The notes under the pieces are model-generated. The model saw only the letters and a program-made list of their open reading frames with translations, was not told the origin of the DNA and ran no database searches. A stretch of DNA of 64,000 nucleotides from Saccharibacillus sacchari. GTDB taxonomy: Bacteria > Bacillota > Bacilli > Paenibacillales > Paenibacillaceae. Positions 25,373-60,700 of this stretch are shown here, piece by piece. The position numbers were made by a program, and so were the translations under genes. Position 1 is the stretch's first letter. Every line of letters starts with the position of its first letter. Location of the stretch: the NCBI RefSeq assembly GCF_037722395.1, contig NZ_JBBKAR010000033.1:433390-497389 (forward strand), in the 5' to 3' direction.

Positions 25373-25536
25373 TAGGGCGTGTCTTCAAACCTACCAACGT
25401 GCATCTTTTACCGCCTTTTCGTCCTGCCCTACGTCACTTTCCCTTGACGTGCCCCGGCACGCCTTCAGAAAAGTTCCTTGGTCAGCACGAAAATTCGGCA
25501 AAATCTGCTTCCGTCGAGGTTTGAAGACATGCCCTA
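25373..25536. mobile_element. MITE-like element (copy 1): ~19-bp imperfect terminal inverted repeats GGGCGTGTCTTCAAACCT / AGGTTTGAAGACATGCCC, flanked by TA on both sides
   Basis: The terminal inverted repeat is visible directly in the sequence. The element is non-coding. Its internal sequence is ~75% identical, in inverted orientation, to the element at 59839-60042. Confidence 0.7.
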
Positions 25537-25737
25537 GCGCCGGGGGCGAGCGGGTCCCTTATAGAGACACATATGATGTTGGCTAAAAGCCCCGACGAAG
25601 ATCTGTCGGGGCTTTTTTGATGGGTTTAAAAATAAAATTAGAAATTTCCGACTTTTTGCTTGTGCTTCACGCATATATGATTAGACGGATGATACGTGTT
25701 GGGGCAATCGGCGGGAGGAGGTCGGGGGAAAGTCTTG

Positions 25738-30290: not shown

Positions 30291-30321
30291 AGGAGGGAAT
30301 ATTCTGTTCGGTAAAGAAGCT

Positions 30322-30424
30322 GGGGCGCTGCGGGAGAAATTCGTTCGAGACGCTGTCTCACGCAGAAAGCCGGTGGCTTTCCGCGTTCAAAGGCGTCTCT
30401 CACTGAATTTCTCCCTCCGCTAGG
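30322..30424. repeat. dispersed repeat family 2, copy A. The hairpin core is deleted but both boundaries are shared with copy D.
   Basis: GGGGCGCTGCGGGAGAAATT…GACGCTGTCTCACGCA…CCGCGTTCAAAGGCGTCT…CCCTCCGCTAGG aligns with 53896-54037. Confidence 0.7.
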
Positions 30425-30660: not shown

Positions 30661-30765
30661 AATTCAAATCCAATCCATTTTCCGAGTGAGACAGCGTCTT
30701 GTGAAGCATTTCGAAGAAATGCACTTCGGAAGCATATGCTTATAAATTTTCTCGCAGTCTTCTCC
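30661..30765. repeat. dispersed repeat family 2, copy B (opposite orientation to A and D). It carries the 55-nt core.
   Basis: Positions 30686-30741, GTGAGACAGCGTCTTGTGAAGCATTTCGAAGAAATGCACTTCGGAAGCATATGCTT, match the reverse complement of 53920-53974 exactly. Confidence 0.75.
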
Positions 30766-35365: not shown

Positions 35366-35520
35366 TCCATGCAAGAGGCGTTCGCTTTCGAGAAAAACCT
35401 GAATCCTATACAAATCAATCGAGATATTGAACAACCTATTTTCTGCACCAAGAAAAGAACCCGTTAGACTTTATCTTGTAGTTGTAATGTGAAAAAAGCT
35501 CTAGCAGAGGGAGAAATTCA

Positions 35521-35650
35521 GTTCAAAACGCCTTTGAACTTGGAAAACCTTCAACTCAAAATTTAATCCGGTTTTCCAAGCGAGACAGCGTTTTGTGAAG
35601 CATTTCGAAGAAATGCACTTCGGAAGCCTATGCTTGTAATTTCTCCCGCA
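35521..35650. repeat. dispersed repeat family 2, copy C (same orientation as B)
   Basis: Positions 35582-35635 differ from the core in copy B at 3 positions. The family boundary GGGCGCTGCGGGAGAAATTA is present as its reverse complement at the right end. Confidence 0.75.
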
Positions 35651-35721
35651 GCGCCCAAGCTTTCACCCAAAACAAACAGGAACTGCAATCCCCAGCCTGC
35701 GACAACTCGCAGGCTTTTCCC

Positions 35722-38043: not shown

Positions 38044-38080
38044 TTGTGCAAAAGCAAATGCTTTTGCACTTTTTCTTTTT
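38044..38080 (+). terminator. rho-independent terminator (GTGCAAAAGC-aaat-GCTTTTGCAC + T-run)
   Basis: A perfect 10-bp stem followed by TTTTTCTTTTT. Confidence 0.8.
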
Positions 38081-38097
38081 CCTTCTCCTTTTTATGC

Positions 38098-38124
38098 TAA
38101 ATTTTCTGCTGATTATGTCGATAA
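38098..38124 (+). promoter_or_regulatory. candidate SigD-type promoter (TAAA-N15-GTCGATAA) upstream of the first chemoreceptor gene
   Basis: It matches the Bacillus SigD consensus TAAA-N15-GCCGATAT at 6 of 8 positions in the -10 element. Chemoreceptor genes are commonly SigD-dependent. Confidence 0.45.
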
Positions 38125-38240
38125 ATATCGAAACAAAGCATGCTTTTCCTTTTCGAGTGGCGCGAATGCCTTCAAGGGTTGTCGTGATAATGGATAGGTA
38201 TTTGCTTAGGCAGATTGGCACAATCAAGGGGGTCATTGGA

Positions 38241-40220
38241 ATGAATTTGAAAATGAAATTGGCTATTTTGTTGGTAGTCGTGACCCTTTTGGGTACGGGC
38301 AGCATTAGCATCGCGGCGCTGAGCAGCATGAGAAATGAAGCCGAAGAGTCAATCAGCGATAACTTGCGGAGTACGGCTGAAAATACAGCAGAGCAAATCG
38401 GAGGCTGGGTTGGCAAAAATGCAAAAGTCGTGGAGACAACGGCTCAAATCATTGAGTCTTCAGTCCCTTTGGATCAAATCAAAGAAAGCCAGCTTCAAGC
38501 TTATACAGCTGAATCCAACAAAAACAATTTGTCCGATATCTACGTGGGGATGGAAGACGGGCGTATGATCGACGGCTCCGGCTGGGTTCCGGAAGCGGGA
38601 TACGATGTCAAAGTGCGTCCATGGTATACGGAAGGAAAAGCAGCGAATGCGCTGAACTTCAGCAATCCTTACCTGGACATGATCAGCGGCGATTACGCCG
38701 TCTCGATCGGGTATCCGCTGCATGAAGCCGACGGTACTTTTGCCGGGGTGGTCGCGGGCGATATGAAGCTGTCCACGTTGACGGATACGATCAACAACAT
38801 CAAGATCGACGGCGGGTTCGCGTTTATGACGGATAAAACAGGCGTTGTACTTGCTCACCCCGATGCGGATGACGTCAATAAACCGCTAAAAGAAATCGCC
38901 GATTATTCGGGCATCGCCGATCAGATCCTGCAAGGCGGAGATTCCGGCAGCTTGACGTACACGTACAAAGGCGAACCGCAATTGCTTTATTATCAAAAGG
39001 TGGACGGTACAGGCTGGTTTGTAGCCGCTTCGGTATCCAAAAGCTATGCGTTTGCCGAATACGTGCACATGCGTAATCTGTTTATCGGCGGCATTATCGG
39101 TCTTGCCGTTTTGTTGGGAGCTTTGGCCGTATTCGCCGCCGCTCGCCTGATCAAACCGCTGATTCTGCTGCAAAAAAGCGCGCAAAGCATGGCCGAAGGC
39201 GATCTGACGGTTAGCGTCGACGTTAAAGGCAAAGACGAAATCGGCAAGCTCGGCACGGCGTTCAACGAAATGTCGGCGAGCCTGCGTGAACTGATCCATG
39301 CGGCGGCAGGTTCGGCGGAAGGCGTGGAAAACTCGGCTAAATACATGCACGGTCAAGCCGAAGGCGCGAAGCATATCTCGGATCAAATCGCGGTCGTCAT
39401 CGAAGAATTGGCGAAAGGCGCAACGGATCAAGCGTCCTCGATCCAAACAGGAGTCGAGCAACTGGGCGATATGAACGAGTCGATCGAAGCGATCGCGAGC
39501 AGTGCAGGTCTGGCCGCATCCAGCGCAGACGAAGTAACCGAAGCGATGAAAGGCGGCCTGGAAGCCGTGGCTTCGCAAGGCGATCTGACCGAAGCAAGCC
39601 GCAGCTCGGCGGGACGCGTGGAAGAAGCCAACCGCCGCCTCGGCGATCAGACTGTGAAGATCGGCGAAGCCGTTAGTCTGATTCACACCGTGGCGAAACA
39701 AACCAACTTGCTTGCGCTGAACGCGGCGATCGAAGCGGCGCGTGCAGGCGAGCATGGCAAAGGCTTCAGCGTTGTCGCGGACGAAGTGCGCAAGCTGGCG
39801 GAACAGACCCGCGCTTCGGCGGCGGATATCGATACGCTTCTGGCAGGCGTGCAGGAAGCCGGTCGTCAAAGCATTGATGAAATCCAGGAATTCCAGGCAA
39901 CCGTGGATAAACAGATCGAAGCGGCAGCCTCTACGCGCGGAGCGTTCGACGTCATTCGCGGCTTGGTCGATGGCATTACGAGCCGGATTCGCGAAGTGTC
40001 TATCGCATCGGACGAGCTGAAGCACAGCGCGGATCATGTTTCTTCGATCATGACCGATATCGCGGCGGTAGCGGAGCAAAGCGCAGCGAGCACGGAAGAA
40101 GCGGCATCTTCGACGCAAGAGCAGGCTCAGGCCATTTCCAGCATTTCCGATCTCTCGGGCGAAGTGTCCGTGAGCGCCGATGAACTGCGCGCGAGAATCG
40201 CCAAGTTCAAAACGGAATGA
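38241..40220 (+). CDS. methyl-accepting chemotaxis protein (dCache_1 sensor + HAMP + MCP signalling domain), paralog 1
   Basis: A transmembrane segment is followed by a periplasmic double-Cache domain, a second transmembrane segment, HAMP and the conserved MCP signalling domain. The start is taken at MNLKMK… after a ribosome-binding site AAGGGGG. Confidence 0.9.
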
Positions 40221-40271: not shown

Positions 40272-42257
40272 ATGAACCTGAAAATGAAGTTGGCCGCACT
40301 ATTGGTCGTCGTAACGTTGGTTGGCACGGGAAGTATCAGTATCGCGGCACTCAGCAGCATGAAAAACGAAGCGGAAGAATCGATCAGTGACAGCTTGCGC
40401 GCGACGGCCACCAACACGTCCGAGCAAATCGGCGGTTGGGTCGCGGCCAATGCCAAACTGGTCGAAACGACCGCGCTGACGCTTCAGGCTTCCGTTCCGC
40501 TGGATCAAATCCAGGTTAAACATCTTCAAGCATTCCAAGCCGATTCGAACAAAGACAAGATCGGCGATATGTACGTCGGCCTGGAAAGCGGCAAATTGGT
40601 CGACGGGCTGGACTGGAAACCGGGCGCGGACTACGTATTGAAAGAACGGCCGTGGTACGTAGAAGCCAAAGCGGCCAACGCGTTGAACTTCAGCAATCCG
40701 TATCTCGATGCGGCCAGCAAGCAATATGCCGTCTCGATCGGGTATCCGCTTCGCGATTCGTCCGGCAATTTTGCCGGCGTGCTGGCCGGCGATATGCGGT
40801 TGTCCAAGCTTACGGAAACGATTAACAATATCAAGGTCGACGGCGGATTCGCGTTTATGACCGATAAAACGGGTGTCGTTCTGGCGCACCCGGATGCGGA
40901 CGACGTGAACAAACCGTTGAGCGAGATCGCCGATTATGCGGGCATCGCGAGCCAACTGCTGCAAGGCGATTCGGGCAGTCTGGAATACACGTACAAAGGC
41001 GAACCTCAGCTTCTGTACTATCAAAAAGTCGAAGGAACAGGTTGGGTGGTCGCCGCTTCCGTTTCTAAAAGCTATGCGTTTGCCGAATACGTGCAAATGC
41101 GCAACCTGTTTATCGGAGGCATTCTGCTGCTCGCCGTGCTGCTGACCGTCGTGGCGGTATTCGCCGCAGCCCGTCTGATCAAACCGCTGATCCTGCTGCA
41201 AAAAAGCGCGCAAAGCATGTCCGAAGGCGATCTGACGGTTAGCGTGGATGTGAAAGGCAAAGACGAAATCGGCAAGCTCGGCACGGCGTTCAACGAAATG
41301 TCGGCGAGCCTGCGTGAACTGATCCATGCGGCGGCCGGTTCTGCCGAAGGGGTAGAAAATTCGGCCAAATACATGCACGGTCAAGCCGAAGGCGCGAAGC
41401 ATATCTCGGATCAAATCGCGGTCGTCATCGAAGAACTGGCAAAAGGCGCAACGGATCAAGCGTCCTCGATCCAAACAGGAGTCGAGCAACTGGGCGATAT
41501 GAACGAATCGATCGAAGCGATCGCTAATAGCGCGGGCCTTGCCGCATCTAGCGCGGACGAAGTAACCGAAGCGATGAAAGGCGGCCTGGAAGCCGTGGCT
41601 TCGCAAGGCGATTTAACCGAAGCCAGCCGTAGTTCTGCGGGACGCGTGGAAGAAGCCAACCGCCGCCTCGGCGATCAGACGGTGAAGATCGGCGAGGCTG
41701 TTAGCCTGATTCATACGGTTGCCAAGCAAACGAATCTATTGGCGCTGAACGCGGCGATCGAAGCGGCGCGTGCAGGCGAGCATGGCAAAGGCTTCAGCGT
41801 GGTCGCGGACGAAGTACGCAAGCTGGCGGAACAGACCCGCGCTTCGGCGGCGGATATCGATACGCTTCTGGCAGGCGTGCAGGAAGCCGGTCGTCAAAGC
41901 ATTGATGAAATCCAGGAATTCCAGGCAACCGTGGATAAACAGATCGAAGCGGCAGCCTCTACGCGCGGAGCGTTCGACGTCATTCGCGGCTCGGTCGATG
42001 GCATTACGAGCCGGATTCGCGAAGTGTCTATCGCATCGGACGAGCTGAAACACAGCGCGGATCATGTTTCTTCGATCATGACCGATATCGCGGCCGTTGC
42101 GGAGCAAAGCGCAGCGAGCACGGAAGAAGCGGCATCTTCGACGCAAGAGCAGGCTCAGGCCATTTCCAGCATTTCCGATCTCTCGGGCGAAGTGTCCGTG
42201 AGCGCCGATGAACTGCGCGCGAGAATCGCGAAGTTCAAAACGGAAGAATCGGCATAA
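40272..42257 (+). CDS. methyl-accepting chemotaxis protein, paralog 2 (tandem duplicate)
   Basis: Same architecture as paralog 1. The C-terminal ~350 aa are identical to paralog 1, and the final ~450 nt are almost identical at nucleotide level. Confidence 0.9.
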
Positions 42258-53895: not shown

Positions 53896-54037
53896 GGGGG
53901 CGCTGCGGGGAAAATTACCAGCATATGCTTCCGAAGTGCATTTCTTCGAAATGCTTCACAAGACGCTGTCTCACGCAAAAAGCTTTCAGCTTTCCGCGTT
54001 CAAAGGCGTCTGGACCTGAATTTTCCCCTCCGCTGGC
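53896..54037. repeat. dispersed repeat family 2, copy D (the most complete copy), between two YtxH-like genes
   Basis: It contains the 55-nt core (53920-53974). It shares the left boundary GGGGCGCTGCGGGGAAAATT and the right module GACGCTGTCTCACGCA…CCGCGTTCAAAGGCGTCT…CCCCTCCGCTGG with copy A. Confidence 0.75.
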
Positions 54038-59008: not shown

Positions 59009-59838
59009 GTGAGTCGAAAATGAAAAAGTTTGCTTTCTGATGAATAATCCATTTTTTATAATTAATAGATTTAAAAGTCGCGAAGCGCGCGGACGTATTT
59101 TTTTCCTTTTGGGAAGGGAACTCGTCCGCTTTTTTTTGTGTATGAACGGTAAAAAAATAGGGTGTTCTCAAATGCTGCAACCCAGCGACAAAAGAGTTTA
59201 CATAGACCGGGAAATACATAGCTAAAAAGATTAAAGGGAAAAATTGGAATGAGAAAAAGTTGGAGGAAATGCACATTAACGCTGTTGGCGACACCGGATA
59301 TGCGAAATTTGCTTAAGCTTTAGCATTTTTCAATTTGCGCTCTTGTGTGAGAAACAACTTGACTCGTACATAGTGGCGTTAAAAAGTAAACGAATGAAAT
59401 ATTCAGCAACGTTCCTTTAAACGTCCCTTTGAACGGTTTGGGCAAATGCTTGGGATCATCAATGCCTTGCACAATGAACGACGAACGAGTCGAGCTGTAG
59501 GTTTTGTTGATAGATTAGCCCCTTGTGCATTCGTGTTCGGTACCGACACAGGTGCTTGGTTTCGATTGTGTACAAAACGTCAAGATTTTCAGCTCTAACT
59601 CGTGCTTTTTTTGCAAATGTTGACGTTTCGGCAACATATTTGCACATTTTCTGCTTAAATCGGCGTTCAATCGAAAATGTGTTGACTTTTCATCAACATT
59701 TTTGAAAATCAGCCGTTGAAACTCATAAAATGTGTGCAAAACGTCAACAATCAAAACGAGTACTTGGGCGATCCTGTAGGAGTAGTTTTTGCGATCTGTT
59801 GAGAATTGATTTTATTTACGTGTTAAAACCATCATGTA

Positions 59839-60042
59839 CTAGGGCGTGTTTGAAAACTCCGAAGGAAGCAGATTTTGCCGAATTTTCGTTTGCAACAAGG
59901 AAGGGTTTCGCAGTCGTGCCGGGGCACGTCAAGAAACCGTGACGCGGCGTCGCCGGAACCGTACGCGCTTTAGGCACGGTTCCGGTAGCGGGCGAAAAGA
60001 CGGTAAAAGATGTACGTCGCCCAAGTTTTCAAACACGCCCTA
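59839..60042. mobile_element. MITE-like element (copy 2), same family as 25373-25536, inserted directly next to the CRISPR trailer-end repeat
   Basis: A perfect 19-bp terminal inverted repeat TAGGGCGTGTTTGAAAACT / AGTTTTCAAACACGCCCTA is flanked by TA. Its interior aligns with the reverse complement of copy 1 and carries an extra ~40-nt hairpin insert. Confidence 0.7.
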
Positions 60043-60069: not shown

Positions 60070-60700
60070 GTTTCAATGCGCGCTCCCGCATGAGGAGCGA
60101 CAAGAGGTTTGCCCGCTGTGCGCTGCAAATCCAGGGTTTCAATCCACGCTCCCGCATGAGGAGCGACGGCAGCGCGTTCCGCTACCCAGGGCGCAACAGT
60201 GCGTTTCAATCCACGCTCCCGCATGAGGAGCGACGATCGCGCGCATCGGTTTGACGATTGCAGGCTGGTTTCAATCCACGCTCCCGCATGAAGAGCGACA
60301 AGCACATGGTAGATCCGGTAAACCTCGATCTCCCGTTTCAATCCACGCTCCCGCATGAAGAGCGACTTTGCAGTGTTCTGCACCAGCTGCTACTACACCA
60401 GTGTTTCAATCCACGCTCCCGCATGAAGAGCGACCGTCTGGAATCTTACGATAATGTCTTACAGATAGGTTTCAATCCACGCTCCCGCATGAAGAGCGAC
60501 CTATGCAGGATGCCAGCAGCTCCAACTATTATGTGTTTCAATCCACGCTCCCGCATGAAGAGCGACTTACAATGTTGGTGGGGTTTGGCAGCCTTGGAGC
60601 GTTTCAATCCACGCTCCCGCATGAAGAGCGACTAGAGACTCGATATTTTTACCCTCTCTATAAAGGCTGTTTCAATCCACGCTCCCGCATGAAGAGCGAC
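60070..60700 (-). CRISPR. CRISPR array with 10 repeats and 9 spacers (33-36 nt); the 32-nt repeat resembles type I-C. It is likely transcribed on the minus strand, with the leader at 60701-~60880.
   Basis: Plus-strand repeat GTTTCAATCCACGCTCCCGCATGAAGAGCGAC. Its reverse complement GTCGCTCTTCATGCGGGAGCGTGGATTGAAAC has the GTCGC…GTGGATTGAAAC shape of subtype I-C repeats. The seven rightmost repeats are identical. The three leftmost carry 1, 1 and 3 substitutions, which marks the degenerate trailer end. Confidence 0.9.

Follow-up and report, generated by a model that had tools for sequence, protein, structure and literature searches.

Two related repeats in the window

The analysed window (a contiguous stretch of 64 kb of the Saccharibacillus sacchari genome) contains two short repeats, referred to below as element 1 and element 2 (Table 1). 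Element 1 starts 67 nt past the stop codon (25308) of a gene encoding a transporter of the MFS type (Pfam MFS_1). Beyond the element lies a stem-loop followed by a T-run (25589-25618), which is conserved in relatives and which was absent from the list produced by a simple terminator scan of the window. With this stem-loop and T-run, as read from the sequence, taken for the terminator, element 1 indeed lies between the MFS gene and its terminator, as the original prediction had it. The element would be co-transcribed within the 3' UTR of the MFS gene, ahead of the stem-loop. Homologues of the MFS protein are 85-87% identical in named Saccharibacillus species and 95-96% identical on metagenome or read-archive contigs; exact matches to the MFS and GalU-like proteins of the window are not on record.

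Element 2 lies beside a CRISPR array (60070-60700) in which ten repeats of 32 nt alternate with nine spacers of 33-36 nt. The left-most repeat (60070-60101), a degenerate one, lies 27 bp past the end of the element, precisely the distance from the trailer repeat that had been predicted. As neighbours the array has genes for a GalU-like nucleotidyltransferase, a glycosyltransferase (GT2) and an unknown protein of 281 aa, and the ~3 kb on each side of it contained no cas genes. Upstream of element 2, around ~59617-59760 in the long intergenic region, are two to three operator-like palindromes of the form TGTTGA...TCAACA (ATGTTGACGTTTCGGCAACAT, TGTTGACTTTTCATCAACA).

Table 1. Positions of the two elements, their parts, and the copies or fragments of a second repeat family in the window
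Feature	Position	Strand	Remarks
Element 1, MITE body, 160 bp, standard form	25375..25534	-	inverted relative to element 2; in the predicted 3' UTR of the MFS gene
Element 1, TIR GGGCGTGTCTTCAAACCT	25375..25392	+	right arm in canonical orientation; 16/17 versus TIR of the P. xylanexedens IS5-family IS
Element 1, TIR GGGCATGTCTTCAAACCT	25517..25534	-	17/18 match to the other arm
Element 1, TA on one side	25373..25374	.	context C-TA; gap versus empty alleles 162 = 160 + 2
Element 1, TA on other side	25535..25536	.	context TA-G
Element 2, MITE body, 199 bp, long form	59842..60040	+	canonical orientation, GCAGATTTTGCCGAATTTTC arm on the left
Element 2, left TIR GGGCGTGTTTGAAAACT	59842..59858	+	16/17 versus TIR of the P. 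durus IS5-family IS
Element 2, right TIR	60024..60040	-	perfect complement of the left TIR
Element 2, left TA	59840..59841	.	putative target duplication; context C-TA
Element 2, right TA	60041..60042	.	context TA-A
Element 2, 38-nt hairpin module	59951..59988	+	10-bp stem CCGGAACCGT/ACGGTTCCGG; missing from the 160-bp form
Second MITE-like family, copy or fragment	30317-30424		
Second MITE-like family, copy or fragment	30678-30757		
Second MITE-like family, copy or fragment	35501-35662		
Second MITE-like family, copy or fragment	53898-54034		

Both elements are bounded by terminal inverted repeats (TIRs) with a TA directly outside. Direct reading gives TA / GGGCGTGTCTTCAAACCT ... AGGTTTGAAGACATGCCC / TA for element 1, with arms that agree at 17 of 18 positions, and TA / GGGCGTGTTTGAAAACT ... 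AGTTTTCAAACACGCCC / TA for element 2, in which the TIR is a perfect 17 bp. A degenerate TIR pattern matched the 64-kb window four times, exactly at these four arms, with 0.30 matches expected by chance and four matches reached in none of 100 shuffles. Aligned in opposite orientation, the two elements show 79% column identity and have the blocks GGAAGCAGATTTTGCCGAATTTTCGT and CGTGCCGGGGCACGTCAAG in common. Neither contains a transposase ORF, only spurious short ORFs. The original prediction was thus accurate in describing two TA-flanked TIR elements that encode no transposase and have similar interiors (~75% identity claimed) in opposite orientation, with the quoted blocks present in both. It had also noted an extra hairpin insert in element 2. 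The 38-nt insert is there, but it is not peculiar to this element: the same module is found at the same position in two other S. sacchari copies (L016 and L060) and is doubled in a copy from Saccharibacillus sp. (L045). It thus defines a subfamily of long forms and is no insertion private to element 2.

A repeat family of the Paenibacillaceae

The interior 20-mer GCAGATTTTGCCGAATTTTC was used as seed in a genome scan and hit at least 111 loci, each of which carries a copy of the element except for a single chance match (L098). The hosts among the matches listed are Paenibacillus, Saccharibacillus, Cohnella and MAGs assigned to Paenibacillaceae/Bacillota. After collapsing copies with identical flanks, 86 complete copies remained. 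On basis of TIR pairing, most copies in the family measure 160-161 bp, a few 198-199 bp, and a few others, which have nested material, 241-256 bp. A full-length parent was not encountered among the first 111 loci, where the longer copies represent nested insertions or two abutting MITEs. Plasmid collections yielded one partial match from Paenibacillus; phage collections yielded none, and a scan of viral contigs for the TIR gave 0 matches. The two copies of the original prediction are correct for the window itself, but elsewhere the family is very large, which makes 'two copies' and 'new family' the one inaccurate part of what had been observed; the further copies that were to be looked for exist in abundance.

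Copies within one genome can be up to 99.4% identical, as in P. agaridevorans, which indicates recent amplification; the family has been active recently in some genomes. Element 1 is 95% identical to one of the other S. sacchari copies. Literature searches with the sequences of the TIR and of the interior, and on MITEs of Paenibacillus, returned only primers and generic surveys. The family is apparently undescribed in papers, and automated MITE catalogues may contain it.

At three loci (L001, L033 and L065) an insert of ~90 nt follows TTCGTTCC, and at a fourth (L011) an insert of ~95 nt follows GTGACGCAG. These fixed-position interior inserts may be other small mobile or modular sequences.

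Target site and empty alleles

The flanks of the 86 collapsed complete copies are strongly biased. The two bases on the left are T in 78 and A in 82 of the copies, those on the right T in 80 and A in 79. One base further out, the left side has a pyrimidine (C in 64, T in 14) and the right side a purine (G in 45, A in 38), so that the context reads YTA / element / TAR. A duplication of 4 bp, of the type of the IS5 group, was considered and ruled out on the same 86 copies, in which the GGG/CCC beside the TA is invariant and the outer bases vary. At one S. sacchari locus (L016, 3605-3998) two copies that belong to different subfamilies abut head-to-head with one TA in common (TA-A-TA-B-TA), the first of them minus 4 nt of its right TIR. 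A single TA common to both copies is what is expected if the TA is the target and not part of the element.

Among the fetched family loci there were no empty sites, only occupied orthologous sites common to several of them. For element 1 the empty sites that the original prediction proposed to seek in related strains were found: the element is missing from two close relatives, L112 and L117, the MFS proteins of which are 96% and 95% identical, respectively, to that of the window. It is likewise missing from the more distant S. qingshengii and S. brassicae. In both close relatives the alignment gap comprises exactly 162 columns, which equals the 160 bp of the element plus 2. For the CCTA to which the window reconstructs, the empty alleles have TTTG, and thus TG rather than TA at the site. 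We infer the TA duplication at element 1 from the additional 2 bp in length, as the empty alleles do not contain an intact single TA; of the predicted TA duplication, the length difference therefore stood up, but the single TA in the uninserted allele was not seen. The insertion site lies in the loop of a small hairpin, the stem of which reads TTTCCGG...CCGGAAA in the relatives versus CCCGG...CCGGG in the window, with compensatory differences. Among the loci examined none is orthologous to the site of element 2, the uninserted form of which would read ...CATGTAC-TA-ATTGTAACC...

Insertion sequences with the same termini

Metagenome contigs were scanned with the TIR in combination with 'not-MITE' bases at three interior positions. 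The scan revealed nine loci with two inverted TIRs 877-1001 bp apart. The best preserved of these (L185:3304-4248) is 945 bp long, has the TIR GGGCGTGTCTGAAAACT at both ends and a TA outside both. It encodes a 114-aa ORFA (PF13340, DUF4096) and, in a different frame, an ORFB with a DDE domain (PF01609/PF13586). An A AAA AAG motif, a putative frameshift site, lies at the junction between the two, and both ORFs match the NCBIfam model NF033580 'IS5 family transposase' end to end. The copies of this ~945-bp IS reside in metagenome contigs of ~30% GC. With ORFB as query, transposases of Paenibacillus were reached and two of them were looked up. The first belongs to an IS of 889 bp in P. durus (CP009288; L240:1073-1961) with a perfect 18-bp TIR, GGGCGTGTCTGAAAACTA, and flanks T-TA...TA-G. 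The second belongs to an IS of 832 bp in P. xylanexedens (CP183887; L241:1149-1980) with the TIR GGGCGTGTCTTCAAACT and flanks C-TA...TA-G. The two transposases are only 49% identical. The 832-, 889- and 945-bp ISs are all flanked by TA and all carry ORFA and ORFB in different frames, with DUF4096 and DDE_Tnp_1 domains. The P. durus copy adjoins genes for NifH-like and radical-SAM/NifB-like proteins (L240 1961-3131).

Two other observations were made on human-gut contigs. Apparent 'pairs' at ~1.9 kb were rejected as ISs, as they consist of a lone TIR-like match at the start of a gene and a small unrelated MITE. On contigs of ~54% GC, L126:5468-5627 and L128:1681-1751 represent the same site with an inverted-repeat element of either 160 bp or 70 bp and a related TIR, GAGCRTGTCTGAAAAA; here another small element differs in size between alleles.

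The termini of the ISs and of the MITEs correspond closely. The P. durus TIR GGGCGTGTCTGAAAACTA is the common TIR of the Paenibacillus MITEs, copies of which match L240 and L185 at 17 of 17 positions, and it is one base away from the TIR of element 2. In fact, all ISs found differ from the latter in a single base (the T that element 2 has at position 9). The P. xylanexedens TIR GGGCGTGTCTTCAAACT is of the element 1 type and has one difference from the TIR of element 1. Beyond these 17-18 bp the Paenibacillus ISs have nothing in common with the MITE, the interior of which is unrelated to the subterminal IS sequence; the MITE thus did not arise from these particular ISs by simple deletion. A different situation is found on low-GC (Clostridia-like) contigs (L121, L129, L148, L152, L160, L164 and L171), which harbour AT-rich MITEs of 131-160 bp with the TIR GGGCGTGTCTGAAAAC and TA flanks. 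The interiors of these AT-rich MITEs are similar to the ends of the 945-bp IS, which makes them look like deletion derivatives, and the IS lineage appears to spawn MITEs. They are similar to the Paenibacillaceae MITE in their 16-17-bp TIR and TA flanks, but the interior of the latter is GC-rich and unrelated to theirs. Neither the 64-kb window nor the Saccharibacillus loci examined contained an IS5/IS427 transposase, and none of the transposase motifs searched for (IS630 YSPxLNPIE, IS5 TRYDK and others) turned up when the window and the first 119 loci were translated in six frames.

The original prediction had derived the elements from IS630/Tc1-mariner transposons, which would imply that a DDE_3 transposase mobilises them and duplicates the TA. 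A TA is indeed present on both sides of both elements and of ~90% of the family members, and IS630 itself prefers CTAG and duplicates the TA. However, the flanking TA that was held to be the hallmark of that origin is not specific, as it is common to the IS427 group. Moreover, all full-length elements that were recovered with these TIRs code for IS5-family proteins (DUF4096 plus DDE_Tnp_1, NF033580), a length of 832-945 bp and a two-ORF layout fit the IS427 group, which likewise has 2-bp repeats, and in ~1.5 Mb of fetched loci neither an IS630-like motif or ORF nor a DDE_3 partner with GGGCGTGTCTGAAAAC termini was seen. We therefore consider an IS630/Tc1-mariner origin very improbable. MITEs of that origin are comparable in small size, TIRs and TA duplication, but differ in their termini and in the partner transposase, which here is of the IS5 family. 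The full-length IS with matching TIRs that had been anticipated does exist (L185, L240 and L241), only it is an IS5-family and not an IS630-family element.

The ISs of the IS427 group within the IS5 family have been described as elements of 832-865 bp with 13-21-bp IRs, 2-bp direct repeats and two overlapping ORFs connected by a frameshift motif (PMC3281130). The partner ISs found here are alike in size, IRs, 2-bp flanks and two ORFs to members such as IS1248, ISPaes1 and ISPpa2 of Paracoccus (PMC3281130), and their assignment to the IS427 subgroup, which is based on anatomy and a family-level HMM, fits. The MITE differs from the ISs of this group in being non-coding and in an interior unrelated to the subterminal DNA of the Paenibacillus ISs. 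Considering the near-identical termini (16/17 for each of the window elements), the 2-bp TA repeat and the partner ISs of 832-945 bp with two ORFs, the elements are very probably MITEs with termini of the IS427 group of the IS5 family, moved in trans by the transposase of such an IS with duplication of the TA in a YTAR site.

Mobilisation by an IS427-type transposase could proceed as follows. An IS5/IS427-type IS encoded elsewhere in the genome would provide the transposase, a DDE protein produced as a frameshifted OrfAB. The OrfAB would bind the GGGCGTGTYTKMAAAC termini and put the ~160-bp element into a YTAR site, often CTAG, with duplication of the central TA. Element 1 would then have entered, as an insertion specific to its lineage, the loop of a small hairpin within the 3' UTR of the MFS transporter gene, and element 2 would be a long-form copy that by chance would have landed 27 bp beyond the old (trailer) end of the CRISPR array. 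We infer that IS5-family transposases mobilise the MITE, that this genome encodes one of these and that the genes beside the two elements are unaffected.

The MITE nature of the repeats, as originally predicted, is borne out by the further copies, by the empty sites and by the ISs with matching TIRs. The elements are short, contain no transposase ORF, have TIRs, and occur as dispersed copies at unrelated sites. In addition, they show presence/absence polymorphism with a target-site duplication (the empty alleles having TG), and autonomous elements have matching TIRs. We conclude that the two are copies of a single non-autonomous DNA transposon, a MITE that occurs in abundance in the Paenibacillaceae. 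As such the family is ordinary in kind and holds nothing unexpected. For genome annotation, the result implies that the ~160-bp intergenic repeat of Paenibacillus, Cohnella and Saccharibacillus can be designated an IS5/IS427-type MITE with a YTAR/TA target; repeats of this sort are probably one cause of fragmented draft assemblies and of short ORFs called spuriously. It also corrects the shortcut by which TA flanks are taken to imply IS630/mariner.

Conservation of the interior and the foldback

Both elements can fold back on themselves, nearly perfectly and from end to end. The RNA of element 1 (+ strand) has a predicted folding energy of -65 kcal/mol (z = -9.3), and element 2, folded as DNA, forms a hairpin over its whole length with an MFE of -52.4 kcal/mol (z = -5.05). 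In 75 distinct copies 91% of the cells are paired, versus 35-53% when the partners are slid. Compensatory double changes occur in 22 of the 61 pairs and amount to 174 cells versus 58.7 in shuffles, with 174 reached in 0 of 500 shuffles; these counts are inflated, as the copies are related and the tested structure was drawn from one member. RNAalifold independently recovered the central hairpin, in which GC is replaced by AU in 31 sequences. These comparisons show that the self-complementarity persists through the divergence of the subfamilies. The interior is highly conserved across three genera among copies that were ascertained with an exact 20-mer.

Such conservation could suggest that the element is a structured sequence selected by the host, similar to a REP/ERIC-like hairpin with a function in mRNA stability, termination or protein binding, and that its spread is secondary or ancient. 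Arguments for this reading are the conserved whole-length foldback with its compensatory changes, the switches from GC to AU in the central hairpin, an interior conservation across the three genera above that expected of junk DNA, and the expectation that the MFS transcript would include element 1 as the -65 kcal/mol hairpin. They are countered by the presence/absence polymorphism with precise ends, by termini that are near-identical to those of autonomous ISs, by near-identical copies inside one genome and by the inflation of the covariation counts mentioned above. Furthermore, the orientation relative to the neighbouring ORFs is even (17 versus 16) and no type of intergenic region is preferred, as judged from crude gene calls, which speaks against a regulatory role that depends on direction. 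In Rfam, neither the whole window at gathering thresholds nor the element at permissive E-values had a match. Taken together, we regard selection by the host as an improbable explanation, and a mobile element with IS5/IS427 termini remains the preferred one.

The Correia elements (CREE/NEMIS) of Neisseria are a comparable case: they too measure 100-160 bp, have a TIR and TA flanks, occur in many intergenic copies and can form a long hairpin if transcribed together with adjacent genes. They have no sequence relationship to the Paenibacillaceae MITE and belong to a different host phylum, and it is for the latter, in distinction to the Correia elements, that candidate autonomous partners have been identified.

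Within the preferred IS5/IS427 reading, two terminal types co-exist. The TIR types GTCTGAAAAC and GTCTTCAAAC both occur in Saccharibacillus, on interiors that are ~79% identical, and the transposase lineages with these types of termini are the two that diverge to 49% identity. One might speculate that a foldback scaffold of ~125 bp has exchanged the ~8 variable positions of its TIR to suit two IS5/IS427 transposase lineages, while selection kept the interior and the hairpin. We consider this scenario rather unlikely; if true, it would mean selection for mobilisation or for a role in the host or at the RNA level, rather than recent common descent alone. The conserved interior, the compensated hairpin and the two TIR types with two transposase lineages in any case make the family a reasonable system in which to study how MITEs recruit a transposase.

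Position next to the CRISPR array

The repeats of the array show a gradient of variants: the three left-most repeats have GAGGAG, the last of them with two further changes, and the others GAAGAG. The repeat end on the minus strand is ATTGAAAC. The repeat decay and this minus-strand end suggest that the array is transcribed on the minus strand, with the leader on the right and the MITE at the trailer. One could suppose that element 2 is functionally tied to the array, as a trailer or leader element or as the relic of a rearrangement of a cas locus, given that only 27 bp separate it from the terminal degenerate repeat and that the array has no cas genes nearby. Nevertheless, the ~100 other copies examined have diverse, unrelated flanks, none of the spacers matches the MITE or its ISs, and element 2 is situated at what is presumed to be the trailer, not at the end where transcription and spacer acquisition start. 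A functional tie is therefore extremely unlikely. On the grounds of the spacers and of the unrelated flanks of the other copies, the adjacency of element 2 and the array is best read as coincidence.

Other repeats in the window

A second, unrelated MITE-like family of ~140-160 bp, with ends like GCGGAGGGAGAAATTC / GAATTTCTCCCGCAGC, is represented in the window by three to four copies or fragments (Table 1). In L117 a relative of this second family, ~225 bp in length (~2375-2600), directly follows the MFS terminator and duplicates the terminator sequence. The window also contains two tandem paralogous genes (38046-40220 and 40272-42257, encoding proteins of ~660-724 aa) that repeat with a period of 2028 bp; in the stretches compared, their DNA is 69-83% identical.
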